DNA from: Naegleria gruberi
Taxonomy: Eukaryota
Length of the DNA stretch: 64,000 nucleotides
Assembly (NCBI GenBank): GCA_000004985.1
Contig: GG738863.1
Reading direction: 5' to 3' (one strand)
Each line of letters begins with the position of its first letter. Within the stretch, counting starts at the first letter, position 1. A model generated the notes under the pieces. It saw nothing but the letters and a program-made list of their open reading frames with translations. It was not told the origin of the DNA and ran no database searches. The position numbers and the translations under genes are program-made. Of this stretch, positions 12,054 to 59,158 are shown piece after piece.

Positions 12054-12103
12054 NNNNNNNNNNNNNNNNNNNNNNNNNNNNNNNNNNNNNNNNNNNNNNN
12101 NNN
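12054..12103. other. Assembly gap (50 N) inside or next to the Zn2Cys6 gene
   Basis: Run of n. Confidence 0.99.
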
Positions 12104-19311: not shown

Positions 19312-20451
19312 TTACACTTTGGAATCATATTGATGAACATCTTGAGAGGTCAGAACAACTTGAGTTGGTTCTGGTGGTTGATAGACAACAACACCAGCCT
19401 CAGCAGAAAAGTAATTGCAAGCAACAGTTGGTTCTTGTGCCACTACTGTTGCAGTATTAGATGATAACGGTTGCATGGTTGGAGAATAGTATTGAACTGT
19501 GCTCATGGTTTGAATCTTTTGTGGTTCAATATAGGCAATAATTGGCACACCTCTTCTCCTTCTGTGAATTATTGATCCAATCACTACACATAGAGCCAAT
19601 AGTAAGCAAATGGCAAAGCTAGCCATCACAATACCAAAGATTGTCCCCAAGTAAGGTGCATCATCTTCCACATTGAACAGATTAATGACCAAACGACACA
19701 ATTCACTCTCCACACATTGAATATGAAGATAGAATGGAACATAGTGTTTCTCATCTAGTTCAGGTACGTCGTTTGGAACATCAATTTCCAACATCTTATA
19801 ATTCAATGAAGAGAGAGTGTAAGGAGTAAACTGAACTTGTTCAGTATTATTAAAGGCGAATCCAACATGAATTGTTTGTGAGCCTCCAATTTGTTGATTA
19901 ACATTTCCGCTCATCAATACTAGATTGTTGTGCTTTCCCTTACGAACTTGTTTTTGACTAAAGAACCTCTGAAATCCATAGGATGGGATGTAAACAGTTC
20001 TTTTTCCAATGTTCAATGTTTCAAATCCAATTGTCATTTCAAAATCAACTGTAAATTCTGTTGGTGCTGTGAATATTAAATAATCTCCTGATGATGAAGT
20101 TCCTGTAATGATAACAACCTTATCTGTCTCTCTTGATGAATATTTAATAATGCCATTGTAGACTACTGATGTGTTTGTATTCGTATCAGAGAAGGGAGAT
20201 GTTCCGACAGATATCGGCAAACTCGAATTAAAAGATAATGTATACATTCCAGCAAAGTACTTGTTAGATGAGGCGATTGCATATTGTGCTCGTACAATAG
20301 TTATAACTGAGGTAAATGGAAGAGATAAAATACAGATCAACACAATGATCATTAGATAGAGTACACTTTGTCGCTGATGCTTAAACAGCTGCGTTGATGA
20401 ATTAATGGTGGACAATCTCTGAAATAAAAACATTATTGATTGATAAGGCAT
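19312..20451 (-). CDS. Hypothetical type-I membrane protein (379 aa): signal/anchor, lumenal domain, one TM (IFGIVMASFAICLLLALCVVIGSII), basic cytoplasmic tail
   Basis: Uninterrupted ORF with an ATG at 20451. Hydrophobicity pattern read by eye. Confidence 0.5.
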   Translation of the reverse strand: MPYQSIMFLFQRLSTINSSTQLFKHQRQSVLYLMIIVLICILSLPFTSVITIVRAQYAIASSNKYFAGMYTLSFNSSLPISVGTSPFSDTNTNTSVVYNGIIKYSSRETDKVVIITGTSSSGDYLIFTAPTEFTVDFEMTIGFETLNIGKRTVYIPSYGFQRFFSQKQVRKGKHNNLVLMSGNVNQQIGGSQTIHVGFAFNNTEQVQFTPYTLSSLNYKMLEIDVPNDVPELDEKHYVPFYLHIQCVESELCRLVINLFNVEDDAPYLGTIFGIVMASFAICLLLALCVVIGSIIHRRRRGVPIIAYIEPQKIQTMSTVQYYSPTMQPLSSNTATVVAQEPTVACNYFSAEAGVVVYQPPEPTQVVLTSQDVHQYDSKV

Positions 20452-20612: not shown

Positions 20613-23600
20613 TTACTTTGAAAAGTAAGGATCTTTGAGGATATCCTTGGCACTTGGTCTTGATGATGAATCTTTGGTGAGCATTTTCAAACAGATGGAA
20701 ATGAGTTCTTCTGAATAATTAGAAGTTTGTTTCATCTTGTCGTGGAGAATTTCACAAACTTGTTTTTCATCCTTTGAGAGGTACATGTGACTGATGGCTG
20801 TTGTGTTATCCTTTGTCATGAGTTGGTAGATTGTTACTCCCAAACTCCAAATATCAGTATTGGAATTATAACTAGCTCCCAATCCAAGTTCAGGACTCAT
20901 GTCTTTAGAAGAATGGTTAAATATCTTACAATGAAATTGAAAAAACTTACAAAGTGGAGTTCCTGCATATGATTGCATAGCTGATGCATGATTGTCCTTT
21001 GCAAGACCAAAATCAGCAAGAATAGTATGAATACTTGTATCATCAATACTCTTAATGAAAATATTGGACAATTTAACATCACGATGGATGGCCTTCAAAT
21101 TGGAGTGAACAAAATCCAAAGCACTACACATTTGATACACTATTTGTTTGACAATGACTTCACCACAGAAAGGAGTTTCAGGTTTGATGAATGCAGATAA
21201 ATCTCCCTTCTCATAAAATTCCATATCCATGCAGAGAATTTCCTGCTTGTCCACAAATAAATCATTCACTTTCAGAATATTTGGATGACTGATATTCATC
21301 AATTGCATTCCTTCTTTCATGATTGCGTTCAACTCTCCAAAGCTTTTAAATTTAATAATTTTCAGAGCTTTGGTCTTGTTTGTTTTGGTGTCAAATGCTT
21401 TTTTTGAAATATTAGAAACTAATCAAATAATAATACAAACCTTTGAAGACACTTCCAAATGCTCCTTGTCCAATCTTGGTTAATTCTTTGTATCTAGAGA
21501 GAGGATCAAATGTTGCTTCACTATTTGTAACAGAAGACATGCTACTGCTGAGAGGTCTGAAAAAGCTGTCATCTGTTGGGAAATCAGAAATTTGATCAAA
21601 AGTGCTGGCATTAGCATCCTTCATTTCAAAGTTTTGACGAGATTTCACAACAGAATTGGTTACAGTTGATCCTTGTTTCTTGAGTTTCATATAAGCAATC
21701 ACAAATGCAACAATTACAACTATCAAAATTGTAATGAACAGCACAACTAACACAGGTACAAGAACTGCAATAAGAACGATTTGTCCATTATTGCTATCCA
21801 CTCTTCCACCACTAGTACTTGTTGAATTCAAAGTTACTGGAGTTGAAATTAAACATTGAGAACCACTCCATGTAGAAGAACATTGACAAGTATCTGGAGC
21901 AATACAGCTTCCTTGAAGTGGGCCACCACATGAACTCGATCCAACAGCTCCATAACAAATTGGTGTACATGTTGTAATGTTCAAAGAATATCCACTATCA
22001 CAATATGGTGTTAGTTTGTAAATATTTCTCCTTTCAGAAACGTAGAGCTCTCCATTTTCTCCATAAATAATACGAGAGGGATCAGCAGAAAGGACTATTG
22101 TTGTTGATAAATTAAAAAATAAAAGAGGAATAACCACTTACATGGCAGTGTAATGTTTGTGAAAGTACCACCAGTTTGGAAACGAGAAACTCCCAAACTT
22201 CCTCCCACAAAAATAGTTCCATCAGAAGCAATGGCTAAACCAGTTTTTTTAACAGTTCCTATTATTTCATTATGTAAGATTAATCTATTATTTGGAAATA
22301 CTAACCGAGGTAATTAATGGAAGTTGAGGTTATAGTTTTGAGATAGTAACTGGTATCGTCCAAGAAATAAATTCGCTTATCAAGAGGTGAAACTGTCATG
22401 GCATTGGCGAAAACTGGTGAATCAAGAGGGACTGATGGAGATGTTTTACTAACACTTTGTGAGCCTCCAGCAACTGTGGTCACCATTCTCGTCGAAAATG
22501 AAATCTTTCTAATCTTTGCAGTGGCCAAATCAAAATAGTACAAATATTCGTTATCAACTGCTATTCTATAACAATTCATAGTAGTATTGAGTGCAGGAAT
22601 ATTTTCTGCAAAGTTGGAACTACTGGACGATCCGGCAAATATTGAAATGGATTTGTTTGAGGGATCAATCATACGGATACTTTGAAAAGAAGAAGAATAA
22701 ATAATGCCATTCTTAATTACAAAGTCTGAAGGAATAAGAGCAATTCGTTCGTAGGAATCAGGATTTTCGGTGGCAATACTATAAGATCCAATTACTCTTT
22801 CTATCTTTCCATCTGTTTTGATTTTGTAAATAATGTTAAAAACTGTAAAATATAATTCAGAATTCCAAAAGTACATGGTATTTCCAAAGGTATCTACTTT
22901 CATCTTGGTGGCTAATGTTTTATCTTGATTAACAATATAATTACCAACATTTCTCAGTGCTGAAAAAGCTGAATCTCCAGCTTTGAAAGTATTAATTTCA
23001 TATTCAAAAGTATTAGCAACAAATATATCAGTTCCATTATCTGAATATCCAATTGCTTGTGGATTTGCGAAATCATTGGCAGAATTAATTAGATTATCTG
23101 ATAGATCTTTTGTTGTGTCATATTGAAAAACGTTAGTACCAAAGGTTACCAGTAAATAGTTATTAAAAGTGGCCACTGCAGTAATTTTGTTGGTTAAAGT
23201 TAAATAAGTACTAGTTGAGTTATCAGCTAATGTGAGCATGATTCTTTTGTTTTCGCTATCTGCAGTGAAAACTCTACCATCGAATGATACTGAAACTGAG
23301 TGAGGATGCCAAAGTTGCTGATTATTTTTACCTGGTCGATTACCAACTCCAATAAGAGTCTCAATAAAACCATTTGAATTGATTCTTCTCATTTTGTTAT
23401 TAAAAGTATCTGCAATATAGACAATATCTGTCATTGTTTGATTATCGTACCAAACACTCACACCAAGAGGGTTGTTCAATTTTGCACTTGTTGCCAAAAT
23501 ATTATCTCCATTATATCCAGGACTTCCTGTTCCAGCAATTGTTGTAATAATATTGGTAATTGGATCAATTCGTCTAATTCTATGATTGTATGTATCAGCA

Positions 23601-24991
23601 ATGTAAATTGCTTTGGTTCCACTTGAAAAAGCAACAGCAGTTGGGTTATTGAATTGAGTATTTGAATCTAAAACAAGGCCATCTCCTGCAAATCCTGCTT
23701 CTCCTTTACCGAATGAATATACTTGTGAATTCTTAATTTGTAATATTGAGTGAGTCAAACTTTGTGTTAAATAGAGTACATTCTGAACTTTTGTTACTCC
23801 ATAAGTTTTGGTCAATCTAATACTGAAAGGATCAGAGTTAAAAGATGGTTCAAAAGGAGATCCACAAAATCTTGAAATTGTACCAGTTTGAGAAAGCAAA
23901 CTAATTCTATCAGCCCTACTCTCGAGAATGTACCACTCTTCAGTGAATGGATTTCTCATAATTGAACGCGGTTCATATAATTGAGCTTGAGTTGCTTGAA
24001 TACTAATATTATCACTGGTGCCACCACCTGCAATTGTAGTTACCATTCCACTCAATGTGTCATATTTTCTAATTCTATTGTTACCAGTATCCGCAATGTA
24101 CAACTCAGTTTCCAATTTGTTCATCCAGAGTTTAGTTGGATTATTCAAAGTGGTTGAAAGTCCACTTGAATCAGAATCAAACCCAATATTTACAGTACCA
24201 ACTAGAGTTACAATAGTTCCGTTTGTCAAAATCTTTCGTATTCTGTTATTTCCGGAATCTGAAACAAAAATTTCACCACTCGATTGTGAAACATAGATTC
24301 CTTGAGGATAACTAAAAGAAGCATTCAAAGCAAGAATTCCATCTCCATAGAATGTATTGTTAGTATTTACATTTCCTGCTATTGTAGTAATAACATTAGT
24401 ATTGGTATCAATCTTTCGAATAACATGATTTCCGCTATCACACACATAAAGACACTCATCAAATGCTGAATAGAAAAGACCTGTAGGATTATTCAATAGA
24501 GCACTCTTTGCCAATGAATTATCTCCTGAGAAACCTGCCGTATCTGATCCAGCCACAAAAATCGAAGGGGAAAGAAAATCGATATTAGTGGCGTAAACAC
24601 CATTTCCAAAAGTATAGTAAATAAAATAGTCATTACCTGCAATTCCTTTGTATTCATAGTTGCCATTATCATTTTGGAAGATGGATATCTTTCCATCTGT
24701 CAATGACACCTTTCGAACAGCACGGCGATAATGGTCAGTGAAATAAAGACTATTCTTCTGCGATGAAAAGAACATATCGTACGGATACGCCAGAGTGGCA
24801 TCAATAGCCTCACCTCCATTTCCAAATTCATCAGAATATCCAGCAAAATTCGAAACTGTATATCTAGCAAACTTTGTTTCCGCACCACCAACCACTTCAA
24901 CAACAACAATGGCAACACACGACAATAACAGTACCAATAAAAGAACTGCACTACGTTGGCCAAAGAAAACCGCCCGGCAGTTGTTGTCCAT
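20613..24991 (-). CDS. Receptor-like protein kinase with an NHL-repeat (six-bladed beta-propeller type) ectodomain, an EGF-like Cys module, one TM and a cytoplasmic Ser/Thr-Tyr kinase domain. Four exons: 24991-22306, 22258-22142, 22094-21441, 21397-20613. Introns 22305-22259, 22141-22095, 21440-21398 (47, 47, 43 nt). ~1413 aa
   Basis: Signal peptide MDNNCRAVFFGQRSAVLLLVLLLSCVAIVVV. Repeated …ADTGNNRIRKY…, …SDSGNNRIRKI…, …ADTYNHRIRRI… NHL motifs. CTPICYGAVGSSSCGGPLQGSCIAPDTCQC. TM LIAVLVPVLVVLFITILIVVIV. Kinase GQGAFGSV|…K, HRDVKLSNIF, DFGLA, and HPNIL after the intron. Junction phases were checked by hand. Confidence 0.8.
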
Positions 24992-36299: not shown

Positions 36300-38084
36300 T
36301 TAATGTCTAATATTACAATGAGTCAATATTTTGAGAAACACTTCTTTTGGTACATTTTCAAAGGTCTGTAAATCCTTTTCCATTACTTTTAGAGCAATTT
36401 CAATATCAGTCAACAGTTCATGTGATAAATGAGATAACCTAGTCCCATCTTTAACATATTGTAAATATTGTAAAACCACTTGCTTATCCCTTTGCAATTC
36501 ATAAGAGGCATGTAAAAAACATTCTGTATGTTTTTGGATAGCTGTCATTACAAAATCTCTATCAGCCTTCAATGCAAAAGATGCACTTTTAAATGCATTT
36601 CCATTTTGCTCAATTGCTTGTAAAACAATTTCCTTATCATTTCTCAATTCCTCTGAGGCAAATTCAAGTGCCAATCCATCTTGGTTAACAGCAACTGTTA
36701 CAATTTCCTCATCATTTCTCAATCGCTCAGAAGCGTGTTTGAGTAGAGTTCCTGCTTGACCAACAGCTAGTAACATTAATTCCTTATCATTTTTCTTGTC
36801 CTTACTCGCTTTTCGAAGAGATCCTGTTTTTAATTTGAAAGCTGTCATTAGCAATTCCCTGTCATCTTGTAAATTGAGAGAAGCATAATCAATAGGTTGC
36901 TTACTCCATCGCACAGATCTCGTGTTAATGGCTTGTAAAACTATTTCACGATCATTTCTGAGTTTGGATGATGCGTATTTAAGCGAAATTCCATTTTGAT
37001 TTATGGCAGATAAAACTATCTCCTTATTGTTTTGCAATTCCTTCGAAGCATATTCAAGAGCTAATCCATTTTGACACACAGCTTGTAAGACAATTTTCTT
37101 ATTCTTTTGGAACTCATATGACAAATATTTGAGAGATAGTCCATATAGCTTACAAGCTTGCATTACAATCTCCATATCATTCAATGACCGAGGAGATAAA
37201 TAGAAAACATATCCCTCCCAATTAAGAGCTTTCAAAATTAATTGCTTATCATTCCTCAATTCTTCAGAAGCATATCTTAATGCACCTTCACTTTGATTAA
37301 CAGCTTTCCAAACAAGTTCCCTGTCATTTTTCAATGAATAATTTAAATATTCTGGTTTGTGTCCTTCCTGTAAAATGGCCATCGAAATAACATTATTAGA
37401 AGCAAATCTAATTGCCTCTCCATTTTGTGAAATAGCTCTCAAAACAATACTCTTATCTCTCCTCAACTCTTCACTTGCAAATTCAAGTGCCAATCCATTT
37501 TGTTCAATTGCAATGTCTACAATTGTCTTTTCATTTTGTAATTCTTTATCCGCAAACGCGAGCGCTAATCCATTTTGAGAAAGAGCTTGCCTTACAACTT
37601 CCATATCTTTTTGTAATTCTTTGGAGGTATGGTTGAGAGCTAGCCCATTTTGCTTACAGGCACATATTGCAATTTCCTTATCATTTTTCAAGTCTTCACT
37701 TGCAAGTTGGAGTAATAATCCATTTCGAATAACAGATTGGTTGACTATTTGTTTATCATTTGTAAAATCTTTGAATCTCTTCAAAACATTTATATCATAA
37801 TCCAAAACCCGCAACACAAACGACTTTACAGACCAAAAATTCAGCTTATCTGCAATATACATTCCATTTGATTTTTGTAAATATTCAACAATATATTTAG
37901 CATCTCTCCAATTTATGAATAATTGATCTTTAAGTAATAAATGGGAAAGGATTGGAAAGAAAATTGTTTTAAATTTTAGAGAAGTGGGAACATCTCGGAT
38001 TTGAGTGGTGAGGAGAAGTGATGAATAATTACAATCTAAAATGATTGTGGTGAGTTGACCTCTCATGTTCTCCAAGTTTTCCAT
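36300..38084 (-). CDS. DUF4116-repeat protein (594 aa)
   Basis: At least 12 tandem ~28-aa units of the form L+NDKEIVLxAVxQNGLALEFASEELRxD. Confidence 0.7.
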   Translation of the reverse strand: MENLENMRGQLTTIILDCNYSSLLLTTQIRDVPTSLKFKTIFFPILSHLLLKDQLFINWRDAKYIVEYLQKSNGMYIADKLNFWSVKSFVLRVLDYDINVLKRFKDFTNDKQIVNQSVIRNGLLLQLASEDLKNDKEIAICACKQNGLALNHTSKELQKDMEVVRQALSQNGLALAFADKELQNEKTIVDIAIEQNGLALEFASEELRRDKSIVLRAISQNGEAIRFASNNVISMAILQEGHKPEYLNYSLKNDRELVWKAVNQSEGALRYASEELRNDKQLILKALNWEGYVFYLSPRSLNDMEIVMQACKLYGLSLKYLSYEFQKNKKIVLQAVCQNGLALEYASKELQNNKEIVLSAINQNGISLKYASSKLRNDREIVLQAINTRSVRWSKQPIDYASLNLQDDRELLMTAFKLKTGSLRKASKDKKNDKELMLLAVGQAGTLLKHASERLRNDEEIVTVAVNQDGLALEFASEELRNDKEIVLQAIEQNGNAFKSASFALKADRDFVMTAIQKHTECFLHASYELQRDKQVVLQYLQYVKDGTRLSHLSHELLTDIEIALKVMEKDLQTFENVPKEVFLKILTHCNIRH

Positions 38085-51261: not shown

Positions 51262-52783
51262 ATGGCATTCGGATCGTGCGNNNNNNNNNNNNNNNNNNNN
51301 NNNNNNNNNNNNNNNNNNNNNNNNNNNNNNNNNNNNNNNNNNNNNNNNNNNNNNNNNNNNNNNNNNNNNNNNNNNNNNNNNNNNNNNNNNNNNNNNNNNN
51401 NNNNNNNNNNNNNNNNNNNNNNNNNNNNNNNNNNNNNNNNNNNNNNNNNNNNNNNNNNNNNNNNNNNNNNNNNNNNNNNNNNNNNNNNNNNNNNNNNNNN
51501 NNNNNNNNNNNNNNNNNNNNNNNNNNNNNNNNNNNNNNNNNNNNNNNNNNNNNNNNNNNNNNNNNNNNNNNNNNNNNNNNNNNNNNNNNNNNNNNNNNNN
51601 NNNNNNNNNNNNNNNNNNNNNNNNNNNNNNNNNNNNNNNNNNNNNNNNNNNNNNNNNNNNNNNNNNNNNNNNNNNNNNNNNNNNNNNNNNNNNNNNNNNN
51701 NNNNNNNNNNNNNNNNNNNNNNNNNNNNNNNNNNNNNNNNNNNNNNNNNNNNNNNNNNNNNNNNNNNNNNNNNNNNNNNNNNNNNNNNNNNNNNNNNNNN
51801 NNNNNNNNNNNNNNNNNNNNNNNNNNNNNNNNNNNNNNNNNNNNNNNNNNNNNNNNNNNNNNNNNNNNNNNNNNNNNNNNNNNNNNNNNNNNNNNNNNNN
51901 NNNNNNNNNNNNNNNNNNNNNNNNNNNNNNNNNNNNNNNNNNNNNNNNNNNNNNNNNNNNNNNNNNNNNNNNNNNNNNNNNNNNNNNNNNNNNNNNNNNN
52001 NNNNNNNNNNNNNNNNNNNNNNNNNNNNNNNNNNNNNNNNNNNNNNNNNNNNNNNNNNNNNNNNNNNNNNNNNNNNNNNNNNNNNNNNNNNNNNNNNATT
52101 TATTGTGGAATGATTATTTGAATTCTGTTCAACAATTTCAATTGGAACCCAATAATACTCATCATTATCATCCATTGAAAACATTCAAGGCGAGAGTGAA
52201 GAATTTCTCTGGAGTTTTACTTTCCTCTCCAACAATTTCAATGAGTTTCATATATAATCAGGTATTTTGGATTACACCTTATGGAAAGGGTGATTCGTCC
52301 AATAATTTTGAATATTATAGGGAGAGAATTGAGAGAGCTATTTCAAATTTCAATTTGCATGTGTTAAAGTTTTTGGTTGTGCCTGTTTTACGGATATTCC
52401 CTTCACTTCCATTGTATCCACCATTTGGAATACCGTGTGCTCAACCAAAATGCAGAGAACGTTTCCAAAATGATGCTCTACTTTACAAGGGCTACTGGAA
52501 GAGTTCAACATCTATTTCCATTTTGGAAGAGATGAGGAGTGTGAAAATTTTACTGGCCTCCTTTAATCCTGACCAATCTCAATCCACACAGAACGTACCC
52601 ACACTCATTGTATACGGAGAATCTGATAATTTCTTCTCGTGGGACGAAACTAAACATCTCTTCTCCAAACATTTTCAAAATATAACATGGAAATCATATC
52701 CCAATCTTAAACACGACGTTTTCCATGAGGATGTTAAAGAACCAGTGTGCAGAGATTTATACAACCTTGTTGTAAGAAACTGA
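51262..52783 (+). CDS. Alpha/beta-hydrolase (MGLL/lysophospholipase-like) gene interrupted by an 817-N gap; only the C-terminal ~225 aa (52098-52783) and a possible start (51262 MAFGSC) are visible
   Basis: C-terminal PTLIVYGESDNFFSWDETKHLF…NLKHDVFHE (Asp/His region of hydrolase_4). The frame across the gap is unknown. Confidence 0.45.
51281..52097. other. Assembly gap (817 N)
   Basis: Run of n. Confidence 0.99.
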
Positions 52784-55291: not shown

Positions 55292-57115
55292 ATGAAACCA
55301 CACAACAATAAGCGAACCATGAAACCAATTCGACCTCTTCGACCAGCCCGAGGTAACAAAAACACTAATTCCGAACACACTTCCGACCAACAACAACACA
55401 ACAAAACTAAACAAACCATTCGTCTCCCAACCAATCATCGAACTCTAATCAAGGCAGCAATCATTGGAAAGCAAGGAAGTCAAATTAAATTAATTTCCGA
55501 ACTGAGTCAGGGATGTAGAATTAAGGTCGAGGAGTCGAGAGTTGTAATTTATGCTGCAAATAATAATCAAAAAGTTGCTGGTAATGATTCTTTATCATCG
55601 AGTGGTAATAATTTGCAAATTGCAGTGAATTTGGTTCAATCAATTATTAATAATGTATTGTGTGTGTTTGAGCATCCGAATGTCATTTGTTCAATCTATG
55701 AATGTAATGGTGAAGAAGAGAGGATGAAATTAACAAGATTTGAAACTCCAATTGTTCTTGTTTCAAATAATCATAATGATGATGATAAAGAAGAAGGAGA
55801 ACAGAGAGAAAAAGTAAAACATCATCAGAATTATTATCGACTTGCTCTTGCTTCGGATGATAATGATGAACTGGCTGATGAGGAAGTGAAAGATCTTCAA
55901 TCAACAATACCTTCTTCTTCTTCTTCAATGGAATTCTCTAATAATGGTTCTTCTGCATCACATGAAGAGCAATTGCTATCTAATAGTAGTAGTAATGGTG
56001 GGGATAAAACTAGTGATACATCCTCATCCTCATCATCATCATTATTGGTGGAGAAGAGATTGGTCAAATCGGATCATCAATTATATTCACAGAGAAAGGA
56101 GAGACAATTAATTTCAGAGGGATTATCATCTGCTGTATCGAACTATTTGAAATTGGATCAATTTGAAGGAATGGAGAGAAAGCTTCTTATTAAGGTTGGA
56201 TTGGGAAGAAAGGTCTTTTATGATGCCAAGAGAAATGTGGAAATGACAAGTAGTATTTTGAATAGAGTTTATAATTTTGAATCGTTCTCCAAGTTGGATA
56301 TTGGTTATGGAAAGGATTTAAAATCTTCATTTAGATTGGAAATGGGAGGAGATTTTGCATTGAATTTGAAAGAATACTTGTTGAAGAATAATTGGAAACA
56401 CACAGAAACAATCAAGAGTGCCACATGTTATGTGGTGAAATTAATGCAAGGAATTATGGGAAGTGCTGGTGGTAAGAGAATGAGTTTCAAAGTAGTTCCC
56501 AATGGATCATTGGCTAAAATTGGAAAATTAAAGATTGCACTGGATAAGCTTTCCTATCTGGACTTTTGTAACTTGGAGGAGAATTGCCCAGATTTGAGAT
56601 TGAGATTTGAAACTGAACAGTATTCGAGAGAATCAACCGATGAAGAATTCAACAAATTCATTTCAGCGCTCAAGTTCAATGAGAAGGATCAAGTCGACAT
56701 GTCTGGAGTTCCTCAAGAATTGTTAGATATTTTCAGAATTGACAGTGTTAGAAATAAGGTTAAGGAAATATACTGCTTGAATGATTTAAAGATTACGATC
56801 AATAAGATTCTCTCTAACGGTAGAGGGTGGTATGAAATTTCCATGTCTTCATTACAACCTTACAATGAATTATCATCTTCTGAGGATGTTGTAAACGTAT
56901 TGAGTACAATGAGAAGTGTATTGAATGGTGTTTGTGGACCAAGAATACATTGTCCAATAATTTCGAATATAGAAAATGTTAACACCACAACCAAGAAGGA
57001 AACAAAAACATCTGCAAAACCTTCCAAAGATTCAACACCTTACTGGACTGTTTTAGGTGTAGCTGCTTTCTGCGCTGCTGTGGGATTTGGATTGAACAAG
57101 TTAATCCACAAGTAA
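55292..57115 (+). CDS. KH-domain protein with a C-terminal transmembrane anchor (607 aa)
   Basis: IRLPTNHRTLIKAAIIGKQGSQIKLISELSQGCRIKV (type-I KH). Acidic S-rich middle. C-terminal YWTVLGVAAFCAAVGFGLNKLIHK. Confidence 0.5.
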   Translation: MKPHNNKRTMKPIRPLRPARGNKNTNSEHTSDQQQHNKTKQTIRLPTNHRTLIKAAIIGKQGSQIKLISELSQGCRIKVEESRVVIYAANNNQKVAGNDSLSSSGNNLQIAVNLVQSIINNVLCVFEHPNVICSIYECNGEEERMKLTRFETPIVLVSNNHNDDDKEEGEQREKVKHHQNYYRLALASDDNDELADEEVKDLQSTIPSSSSSMEFSNNGSSASHEEQLLSNSSSNGGDKTSDTSSSSSSSLLVEKRLVKSDHQLYSQRKERQLISEGLSSAVSNYLKLDQFEGMERKLLIKVGLGRKVFYDAKRNVEMTSSILNRVYNFESFSKLDIGYGKDLKSSFRLEMGGDFALNLKEYLLKNNWKHTETIKSATCYVVKLMQGIMGSAGGKRMSFKVVPNGSLAKIGKLKIALDKLSYLDFCNLEENCPDLRLRFETEQYSRESTDEEFNKFISALKFNEKDQVDMSGVPQELLDIFRIDSVRNKVKEIYCLNDLKITINKILSNGRGWYEISMSSLQPYNELSSSEDVVNVLSTMRSVLNGVCGPRIHCPIISNIENVNTTTKKETKTSAKPSKDSTPYWTVLGVAAFCAAVGFGLNKLIHK

Positions 57116-57450: not shown

Positions 57451-59158
57451 ATGATTAAAACACTTTCATTCATACTACTAGTGTTATTATCACTCTATTC
57501 TATTATATCTTTCATTAGAGCTCAAGAAAGATTCATTAATGTCAAGTATTCAATTAAAACTTTGATTGGAACTGGTGCTGGAATATTTAACTTGGATGGG
57601 TTGACTGGATTGGCTACTAATATTAATTCACCTATTGGCGTGTTTTATGAAGAGAGTAGTGGTGATTTGAATTTCTCACATACATGTAAGTTTCATACTT
57701 TCGAATAATAATTTTCATGTTATTCGAAACAACAGTAAACAATACAGTAAGAGTTTTGAGAAACTCATCNNNNNNNNNNNNNNNNNNNNNNNNNNNNNNN
57801 NNNNNNNNNNNNNNNNNNNNNNNNNNNNNNNNNNNNNNNNNNNNNNNNNNNNNNNNNNNNNNNNNNNNNNNNNNNNNNNNNNNNNNNNNNNNNNNNNNNN
57901 NNNNNNNNNNNNNNNNNNNNNNNNNNNNNNNNNNNNNNNNNNNNNNNNNNNNNNNNNNNNNNNNNNNNNNNNNNNNNNNNNNNNNNNNNNNNNNNNNNNN
58001 NNNNNNNNNNNNNNNNNNNNNNNNNNNNNNNNNNNNNNNNNNNNNNNNNNNNNNNNNNNNNNNNNNNNNNNNNNNNNNNNNNNNNNNNNNNNNNNNNNNN
58101 NNNNNNNNNNNNNNNNNNNNNNNNNNNNNNNNNNNNNNNNNNNNNNNNNNNNNNNNNNNNNNNNNNNNNNNNNNNNNNNNNNNNNNNNNNNNNNNNNNNN
58201 NNNNNNNNNNNNNNNNNNNNNNNNNNNNNNNNNNNNNNNNNNNNNNNNNNNNNNNNNNNNNNNNNNNNNNNNNNNNNNNNNNNNNNNNNNNNNNNNNNNN
58301 NNNNNNNNNNNNNNNNNNNNNNNNNNNNNNNNNNNNNNNNNNNNNNNNNNNNNNNNNNNNNNNNATTCGAAAGTTTGTGGAACTAATGGAAAATGTCTGA
58401 CAATTGACAAGTGTGTTTGTAAAGATGGATTTTATGGTCTTGATTGTTCACTTCCTATTTGTTTGAAAGCAGAAAATGGAAAGTGTGCTAATGATACAAC
58501 AGGTGTAACTGTAGAAAATATTGAAACAAGTCAATTGTCAAACAAATCAATTTCTCTTAGTTCAGGAAATTTGACAGAAAGTTCAGTAGTTTCAGTTTCC
58601 TTTCCTTCTGATTTTTCTCATTATATTTCCAATCAAACAACCTTCTCATCAGTTTCTCTACTCACAGCGGTTTCTACAAGCGGAAACAATTTGACAAACT
58701 CAAATTCTGCTTTCTCCATAGTTTCGAATATAATCACAATTTCACTTGCCTTAACAAATGGAAAAAAGATTCCAGTTTCTAATTTGGAAAATCCTATACA
58801 AATCTCATTCCAAAAACCAACAAGTTATTCTGGAAATTTGACATGCATGTACTTGGACGAATTGACCAATGAATGGAAATCAGATGGTGTGAAAACTGTT
58901 ATTGAACCATTAACAGTCAATTGTCTGACTTCTCATTTAACTTCCTTCTCGGTAATTGATATTAATCTCAGGAAGGAAATTGGAAAACCAAAAGAATCAC
59001 CGAGTGTCAGTAATCAAACAATTTCACAAAGTCAACTCTCTCAAGAAGCTATCATTGCAATCTCAGTATCAATTGCTGGAAGCTTCATTGTTTGTTGTGT
59101 TGTTGCAATAATCCTGTCAGCTGTTATCTGCTTAATAAGAAGAAAATCGAAGAAGTAA
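57451..59158 (+). CDS. Single-pass membrane protein with a signal peptide, NHL-type repeats, an EGF-like module, an S/T-rich stalk, a GPS (GAIN-type autoproteolysis) motif and a TM + RRKSKK tail. Exon 1 57451-57685, intron 57686-57735 (50 nt), exon 2 from 57736, interrupted by a 595-N gap, resuming 58365-59158
   Basis: [24 protein letters not shown]. After the intron, LNNTVRVLRNSS is an NHL motif like the GNNRIRKI of the kinase ectodomain. CGTNGKCLTIDKCVCKDGFYGLDCSLPIC is EGF-like. GNLTCMYLDELTNEWKSDGVKTV…TVNCLTSHLTSFSVI matches the GPS consensus (W…G…C.C.HLT.F.V). TM IIAISVSIAGSFIVCCVVAIILSAVICLI. Confidence 0.65.
57770..58364. other. Assembly gap (595 N) inside the NHL-EGF-GPS gene
   Basis: Run of n. 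Confidence 0.99.

Follow-up and report, generated by a model that had tools for sequence, protein, structure and literature searches.

The window analysed here, a stretch of 64,000 nucleotides of Naegleria gruberi DNA (contig GG738863.1 of assembly GCA_000004985.1), carries on its + strand a gene that starts with the ATG at 57451, runs to 59158 and is interrupted by an assembly gap. We are highly confident of its architecture, in which an NHL propeller and an EGF module precede a GAIN subdomain-B (GAIN-B) and a single transmembrane (TM) helix, and of the identity of the GAIN-B domain. The best explanation of the locus as a whole, which we consider probable, is one NHL-EGF-GAIN-B single-pass gene whose product contains a self-cleaving break-away joint. 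Judged from its translation, the product is a type-I, glycosylated single-pass surface protein without a cytoplasmic domain. An earlier reading made from the letters of the DNA (the sequence-only reading) had described a kinase-less NHL, EGF and GPS-motif single-pass protein, a description that the Pfam matches of the window and of a homolog, together with a structural model and the short tail RRKSKK, bear out. Its further label, adhesion-receptor-like, is apt in the sense that a GAIN domain is present, but the protein is not a G protein-coupled receptor (GPCR), given its one TM helix and 6-residue tail. The homolog in question is protein P0002, encoded on the 6.9-kb metagenomic contig L001; at ~64–65% identity it was the sole close relative returned by a word-indexed protein search besides the public N. 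gruberi model P0001. The features of the gene are as follows.

57451-57522, + strand: signal peptide, from the translation (the cut after IRA was placed by eye; the N-terminus of the L001 protein is equivalently hydrophobic)
57451-57685, + strand: exon 1, encoding the signal peptide and the greater part of NHL blade 1 (…NSPIGVFYEESSGDLNFSHT), 53% identical to L001 exon 1; BLASTP to the NHL blades of the window's receptor kinase, E 8e-5
57686-57735, + strand: intron of exactly 50 nucleotides, GT..AG, phase 1; the L001 intron has the same position and phase
57736-57769, + strand: first part of exon 2, (L)NNTVRVLRNSS, with the last portion of NHL blade 1, interrupted by the gap; from the translation
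57770-58364, no strand: assembly gap of 595 N, which by homology hides ~301 amino acids and maybe a second small intron
58365-59158, + strand: rest of the last exon, with an open frame from 58367 and the stop TAA at 59156-59158; from the translation
58373-58462, + strand: teneurin-type EGF module VCGTNGKCLTIDKCVCKDGFYGLDCSLPIC, N-terminally truncated by the gap; from Pfam and matches to WIF-1 EGF repeats
58502-58960, + strand: GAIN-B-like beta-sandwich (amino acids 46-198 of the C-terminal fragment), including the segment formerly read as a stalk
58841-58957, + strand: GPS motif TCMYLDELTNEWKSDGVKTVIEPLTVNCLTSHLTSFSVI, Pfam PF01825, aligning to the GPS of ADGRG3 and ADGRG1
58934-58942, + strand: H-L-T triad with the predicted scissile bond between L (58937-58939) and T (58940-58942), from conservation in 19 relatives
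58961-59047, + strand: juxtamembrane linker INLRKEIGKPKESPSVSNQTISQSQLSQE of 29 amino acids, with a predicted local distance difference test score (pLDDT) of 40-43 over two 10-residue blocks
59048-59137, + strand: single TM helix AIIAISVSIAGSFIVCCVVAIILSAVICLI, from the model (helix 183-219) and a hydropathy scan
59138-59158, + strand: basic cytoplasmic tail RRKSKK and stop, from the translation; no signalling domain

Identity of the GAIN-B domain

The segment between the EGF module and the membrane, with 34% serine plus threonine, had been taken for a serine/threonine-rich stalk, and the C-terminal fragment as a whole has seven N-glycosylation sequons. The stalk interpretation does not stand, because the GPS profile, the matches to relatives, the AlphaFold2 model, the Foldseek search and a profile search of PDB sequences all indicate a folded GAIN-B sandwich. 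The 'stalk' of the animal receptors likewise turned out to be the GAIN sandwich (Araç et al., PMC3321182). The Pfam GPS profile (PF01825), whose curated cut-off is 22.5 bits, gives amino acids 159–197 of the C-terminal fragment a score of 25.4 (E 2e-5), while the GPS of the L001 protein, at 20.9 bits, lies slightly under that cut-off. In a phmmer search of the PDB, the GAIN domain of ADGRG3 ranks first, with HLT aligned on HLT, and the family profile A1 retrieves adhesion GPCR (aGPCR) GAIN domains as its only matches among PDB sequences (best E 2.7e-5, profile positions 33–168). The GPS/GAIN consensus proposed at HLT, with cleavage between L and T, is thus upheld by both the Pfam and PDB profiles and by the fold searches described below.

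An exhaustive phmmer search with the EGF-to-TM segment (window 58496-58996) against 1.84 billion representatives returned 101 matches at E<1e-3, including 12 at E<1e-10. The closer ones span most of the ~150 residues, well beyond the last 40, and 91 of the 101 carry the pattern C-x(1-3)-H-[LMIV]-[TS]-x-[FYLW]. The AlphaFold2 model (mean pLDDT 82.5) comprises a beta-rich domain at residues 3–155, a low-confidence linker and a TM helix; a second model was built from a 321-amino-acid piece of P0002. Ranks 1–10 of a Foldseek search of the PDB are all aGPCR GAIN domains (BAI3, BAI2, GPR56, CD97, GPR110, latrophilins and GPR97; E down to 6e-6) with ZU5 next, and both fold searches place GAIN domains above ZU5. 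The fold agrees with the twisted sandwich of 12–14 strands and integrated last strand that define GAIN subdomain B. It also agrees with the related beta-sandwich, ending in a turn of the self-cleaving type, of the wider ZU5/FIIND/Nup98 autoproteolytic superfamily, which includes GAIN. The protein shares most, but not all, of the defining features of a GAIN domain.

The sequence-only reading had also placed the GPS immediately before the membrane. Its position is indeed juxtamembrane, but 35 residues, made up of the last beta-strand and the 29-residue linker, separate the bond in HLT from the TM helix. The low pLDDT of the linker suggests that it is probably disordered. A single TM helix followed by RRKSKK and a stop takes the place of a seven-helix (7TM) bundle, and the Pfam 7tm_2 family has no match in the window fragments.

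Predicted cleavage competence

Self-cleavage at the bond between L and T in CLTSHL/TSFSVID (the slash marks the bond) is predicted from conservation, and the balance tips modestly in its favour. The relatives used to judge conservation number 19 and are 26–38% identical to the window fragment, except for the close homolog at 69%. Across this set there is no variation in the His, the Leu, the +3 Phe, a Trp or the cysteines C1 and C3; 18 of 19 have Thr as the nucleophile and the other has Ser, the second residue past the first Cys is always aromatic (Tyr 17/19, Phe 2/19), and a Gly precedes the second-Cys position in 18 of 19. Cleavable receptors are marked by a Phe/Tyr at S10.49, which positions the His, and by a Gly before S12.50, the second cysteine, a Gly that is strictly conserved in cleavable human receptors (Pohl et al., PMC13062082). 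From alignments to aGPCR GAIN domains we read the aromatic residue after the first Cys as S10.49, so that both of these additional cleavage marks appear to be present.

Several points weigh against the joint as proposed. GAIN domains have two disulfides, C1-C3 and C2-C4 (C801-C832 and C820-C834 in CL1/latrophilin-1; PMC3321182), whereas here the C2 position is V, I, L or T and the C4 position is Thr in 19/19 relatives; because both positions are non-Cys throughout, there can be one disulfide at most, and the missing C2-C4 bond looks like a coordinated loss. Subdomain-A helices are absent from both models (the window fragment and the P0002 piece), and the first sandwich strand begins ~6–8 residues past the last cysteine of the EGF region. 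Known GAIN domains have 2–6 such helices (PMC11697300), and deletion of subdomain A abolished the cleavage of latrophilin-1 (PMC3321182). BAI2 and BAI3 resist cleavage in spite of an intact H-L-S/T triad (PMC13062082). The alignments behind the models are shallow (19 sequences for the window fragment and 16 for the second model), the disulfide and triad geometry comes from sequence alignment, and the blade count and gap content are taken from a ~65%-identical homolog, the middle of the window protein lying in the gap.

In a competing account, the domain is GAIN-B by descent but has lost cleavage and serves as a rigid glycosylated spacer that keeps the NHL propeller at a distance from the membrane, the protein being a plain adhesion or binding molecule or a decoy for the NHL receptor kinases. 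The missing subdomain A, the C2-C4 disulfide lost in all relatives and the precedent of uncleaved domains with an intact triad all fit such a spacer. However, the near-invariance of the His, Leu, Thr/Ser, +3 Phe, His-positioning aromatic and Gly in divergent relatives is difficult to reconcile with a simple spacer, and ADGRG1, with just two subdomain-A helices, is listed as cleavage-competent (PMC11697300, PMC13062082). We therefore regard the loss of cleavage as unlikely, though a serious contender, and retain the self-cleaving domain as the working prediction.

Gene structure, the assembly gap and the weaker alternatives

The two halves of the gene are separated by 595 N. The 50-nucleotide intron before the second exon, announced by the sequence-only reading with correct coordinates and translations, is present at 57686-57735 with GT..AG borders, in keeping with window DNA that is AT-rich (~27–37% G+C over most of its length) and has small GT..AG introns. 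A 9-bp perfect inverted repeat, TTCGAATAA…TTATTCGAA, lies in this intron at 57700-57730, and TTCGAA also occurs within the intron of the homolog; the repeat may be due to chance or may be a structural feature of the intron. Downstream of the gap a single open frame of 263 codons extends over 58367-59155. The claim that the frame continues past the gap is right only if the gap length is an estimate, as the flanking frames are offset by 629 nucleotides, or 2 mod 3, and hence do not match at a literal gap length of 595 N. Because the lengths of scaffold gaps are estimates, this mismatch is uninformative.

The homologous gene on L001 is contiguous and has three exons, and its spliced protein of 670 amino acids has six NHL blades as counted in the sequence. 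In Pfam it matches TEN_NHL (49.1 bits), NHL (34.4), EGF_Teneurin (27.1, above the cut-off) and GPS. Its first intron is shared with the window gene in position and in phase 1 (FADT/MNHRVRVL in L001 and FSHT/LNNTVRVL in the window, the slash marking the intron), and the interval that matches the gap comprises 301 amino acids and a 42-nucleotide intron. Since this homolog is contiguous and has the same intron position, the window halves are best read as one gene, in which, by homology, the gap would contain NHL blades 2–6 together with the Cys-rich linker and the initial cysteine of the EGF module. No genes are common to the flanks of L001 and the window, and for want of this synteny the L001 gene could be either orthologous, from another heterolobosean, or closely paralogous.

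The visible part of the ectodomain agrees with this structure. The 90 N-terminal residues visible before the gap receive no NHL call from Pfam, whereas the homolog passes for tandem NHL blades (PF01436 or PF25021). The one blade that the window shows nevertheless matches three blades of the window's kinase ectodomain (BLASTP E 8e-5, 1e-4 and 7e-4), and it is 53% identical to the first blade of the homolog, which is that protein's best NHL stretch. The proposal that exon 2 reads as an NHL blade like those of the kinase is therefore supported by similarity to the kinase and the homolog, but not by a Pfam call. Past the gap, the predicted EGF-like module is confirmed: its scores in the window fall slightly below the Pfam cut-offs (EGF_Teneurin 22.3 against 24.3 bits, EGF_2 20.1 against 22.1), its first cysteine being inside the gap, and the EGF of the homolog passes.

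A gap could also separate two genes, namely a small secreted NHL protein and an EGF-GAIN-TM gene that starts inside the gap. In favour of this, the flanks of the gap are out of frame at its literal length, but that length is an estimate. The nearest homolog is a single continuous gene with an identical intron position, the family has at least 15 named paralog clusters in three Naegleria species, of which those examined in detail carry the NHL-EGF-GAIN-TM order in one protein, and a 90-amino-acid piece with one NHL blade would be unable to form a propeller. Two genes are accordingly very improbable. Even less credible is that HLT is a chance motif in a low-complexity region rich in Ser, Thr and Asn, or that the fold belongs to another ZU5/FIIND/Nup98 branch, a reading largely refuted by the GPS score above the curated cut-off, the recurrence of the motif in the library matches, PDB profile matches that are all aGPCR GAIN domains, and the ranking of GAIN over ZU5 in both fold searches.

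The single-gene structure has a practical consequence for public databases. The C-terminal fragment is 99% identical to P0001, a 330-amino-acid 'predicted protein [Naegleria gruberi]' that splices LNNT straight onto CVCKDG through a 665-nucleotide 'intron' (57747-58411) spanning the gap and removing coding sequence on both of its flanks. Because this invented intron swallows the assembly gap, with coding sequence lost on both sides, the public model is an artefact of splicing. The word-indexed protein search with the fragment found no second N. gruberi version of the protein besides P0001, in a method that is insensitive: with the fragment its sole matches were the N. gruberi model and a single homolog, and with the family alignment the N. 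gruberi model and a short EukProt transcript protein.

A modular family with and without kinases

The window contains a second gene with a related ectodomain, which itself ends in a kinase.

20613-24991, - strand: receptor gene with NHL propeller, Cys-rich/EGF region, TM helix and protein kinase (TEN_NHL 100.7, NHL 90.1 and Pkinase 130.3 bits)

The ectodomain of this kinase is similar to the homolog both in the NHL region (E 1e-22) and in the Cys-rich/EGF junction (38% identity), in agreement with the earlier suggestion that the two proteins have a common ectodomain logic. The kinase has no GAIN domain, because only ~25 amino acids lie between its EGF and its TM helix; the two proteins thus differ reciprocally, the one having a kinase without GAIN and the other GAIN without a kinase. 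Searching the window by tblastn with family members gave no second GPS/GAIN gene; all matches were confined to the NHL and EGF portions of the kinase gene.

The order of NHL propeller(s), EGF module(s), GAIN-B, TM helix and short basic tail recurs in Naegleria paralogs, with at least seven further paralog clusters in N. gruberi, at least eight in N. lovaniensis and at least two paralogs in N. fowleri. Those compared (N. lovaniensis C9374_005712 and C9374_006032, N. gruberi NAEGRDRAFT_66569, and N. fowleri FDP41_006543 and FDP41_006569) have the same architecture with 26–38% identity over the GAIN-TM region, and differ from the protein studied here in the numbers of propellers and EGF repeats. 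All these paralogs are annotated as 'hypothetical' or 'predicted' proteins, and any domain labels are automatic; a few carry such labels, for example 'GAIN-B domain-containing protein', the UniRef name of C9374_005712 and C9374_006032. A minimal GAIN-B on a single-pass anchor is therefore found in three Naegleria species, the pathogen N. fowleri among them, and in relatives it stands before a kinase.

Sorted by the number of TM helices with a simple hydropathy scan, which is a crude method, the 101 relatives from the exhaustive search fall into the following classes.

Single-pass, short tail: 34
Single-pass, long tail: 13
At least two TM helices: 21
No TM helix past the GPS, mostly fragments: 23
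No motif match: 10

Seven of the eight long-tailed single-pass relatives scanned with Pfam are protein kinases. Six come from the amoebozoan Planoprotostelium fungivorum (P0040, P0050, P0062, P0069, P0077 and P0085; accessions include PRP80758, PRP79337 and PRP75326), and the seventh, the metagenomic P0030, is an EGF-GAIN-B-TM-kinase whose kinase is 46% identical to that of the window (20.6–21.4 kb). In most of these seven the juxtamembrane GPS is detectable by Pfam, and in the others the GAIN region was matched by phmmer only; the layouts run from EGF or leucine-rich repeats through further sequence to GPS, TM helix and kinase. We did not find a GPS-TM-kinase receptor architecture in the aGPCR/GAIN papers that we consulted. 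Through P0030, the idea of a ligand-sensing family with signalling and non-signalling members gains ground, and sequence comparison supports one modular family of both kinds. Multi-pass relatives include the 7tm_2 protein P0092, and we read others, with one TM helix, a long loop and then more TM helices, as polycystin-like. The top-scoring library match, P0003 from the fish Tachysurus vachellii (2020 amino acids), carries six GPS-like units in tandem, CSYNHMT[LP]F, ahead of ~7 TM helices, and is an unusual multi-GPS receptor.

Proposed mechanism and significance

In the mechanism that we propose for the single NHL-EGF-GAIN-B gene, the GAIN-B domain would cut its own chain between Leu and Thr (58937-58942) during biosynthesis, with His as the base and Thr as the nucleophile, as in the adhesion GPCRs and polycystin-1. 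The NHL-EGF ectodomain would then remain attached to the membrane stub without a covalent bond, held by the last strand, TSFSVID, which stays buried in the sandwich. Because the protein has neither a 7TM bundle nor a cytoplasmic domain to take up a tethered agonist, the joint would act as a break-away link: a ligand or substrate bound to the propeller, together with traction, could pull the ectodomain off, making the link force-sensitive. Shedding might release adhesion, or it might expose the stub peptide to a partner, for example one of the organism's own NHL/GAIN receptor kinases. Such a break-away adhesion or co-receptor role is doubtful for a single-pass protein without a tail.

If the domain cleaves, its beta-sandwich alone would be sufficient for autoproteolysis, and it would offer a small and simple model of GAIN mechanics without an attached GPCR. 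Cleavage would also point to a mechanism of shedding or adhesion on the surface of crawling, trogocytosing amoebae.

Other features of the window

Several further features were recorded. A protein of 13 DUF4116 repeats (490 bits) is encoded at 36300-38084 on the - strand, and a DUF4116-family member also adjoins the GAIN homolog on L001 (3872-6856, - strand), the two loci otherwise not being syntenic. The gene directly upstream of the GAIN-B gene (55292-57115, + strand) has a KH-domain match of 25.5 bits and ends in a hydrophobic anchor (…YWTVLGVAAFCAAVGFGLNKLIHK), a combination that is unusual for an RNA-binding module. Adjoining the kinase gene, a 379-amino-acid open reading frame at 19312-20451 on the - strand has a signal peptide, a single TM helix and no Pfam match. 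Further assembly gaps lie at 1129-2450, 12054-12103 and 51281-52097. The G+C content dips to ~0.19–0.22 at 1–2 kb and 50–52 kb (0.27 in the 2–4 kb bin); these dips are artefacts, since they coincide with the N runs of the two largest of these gaps.

Comparison with known systems

In the L001 homolog and in the Naegleria paralogs, the propeller and the EGF module find their best Pfam matches in the teneurin NHL and EGF families. Teneurins have type II topology, a YD shell and a C-terminus resembling a toxin, and in animals teneurin is a ligand of the GAIN-bearing latrophilins; here, teneurin-type modules and GAIN are joined in one polypeptide. The homolog has no Pfam match to a YD-repeat shell or a Tox-GHH-like C-terminus, and the protein is type I with a signal peptide. 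The teneurin resemblance is thus probably a generic similarity of modules.

GAIN domains are older than animals and are found, for instance, in Dictyostelium and Tetrahymena (PMC3321182); outside Holozoa they occur in non-aGPCR genes (PMC12716839). According to a 2025 survey, the polycystin type is the sole GAIN family besides the adhesion GPCRs, and 2–6 subdomain-A helices are always present (PMC11697300). In our literature search no paper joined Naegleria with 'GAIN domain' or 'NHL repeat', and the sole paper found for Naegleria and 'GPS domain' handles the two separately. As deduced from its sequence, the Naegleria protein would therefore represent a new arrangement, for which we found no description: a GAIN-B-only, one-disulfide, single-pass protein with an NHL-EGF ectodomain and no GPCR.

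With the GAIN domains of adhesion GPCRs (ADGRG1/GPR56, ADGRG3/GPR97, ADGRG6, ADGRE5/CD97, CELSR1, BAI3 and the latrophilins) the protein shares the H-L-T triad, the +3 Phe, the aromatic residue, the Gly, the first and third cysteines and the juxtamembrane position, and its TSF[AS]VID strand resembles the tethered-agonist core TxFAVLM of these receptors (PMC12716839). In contrast to them, it has one TM helix with a 6-residue tail, lacks the subdomain-A helices and the second disulfide, bears an NHL propeller and EGF ectodomain, and belongs to a heterolobosean amoeba rather than a holozoan. Polycystin-1 and the PKD1-like proteins, including sea-urchin suREJ, are likewise non-GPCR proteins with a cleaved juxtamembrane GAIN/GPS (PMC3321182, PMC11697300), but the PKD1 type crosses the membrane with 11 TM helices, includes PLAT and REJ modules, and has a GAIN domain that is extended, with ~4 subdomain-A helices (PMC11697300). 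Neither PLAT nor REJ has a Pfam match in the window fragments or the homolog, and there is a single TM helix. Because the defining features of both families were looked for and found wanting, the protein is neither an adhesion GPCR nor a polycystin. Among sea-urchin REJ proteins, suREJ1 is single-pass.

The 1TM isoform of the Drosophila latrophilin Cirl is also a single-pass, GAIN-bearing protein, and it pairs with a 7TM signalling form (PMC13197933). It sets a precedent for a protein that acts as a co-receptor while lacking its own signalling domain, although the Cirl form is a splice variant of a true animal aGPCR gene, whereas the Naegleria protein is the product of a dedicated gene with an unrelated ectodomain. 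Taken together, these comparisons allow us to suggest, tentatively and with less confidence than we place in cleavage itself, that a GAIN domain reduced to subdomain B, with a single disulfide, is a self-sufficient autoproteolytic break-away joint and constitutes a third GAIN class beside the adhesion GPCRs and the polycystins, represented by single-pass NHL-EGF proteins and GAIN-TM kinases in Heterolobosea and Amoebozoa. If so, the two-fragment, force-sensitive receptor design would predate 7TM signalling and be independent of it, and in those relatives that carry a kinase, this single-pass kinase could be gated by the stub peptide once it is exposed.

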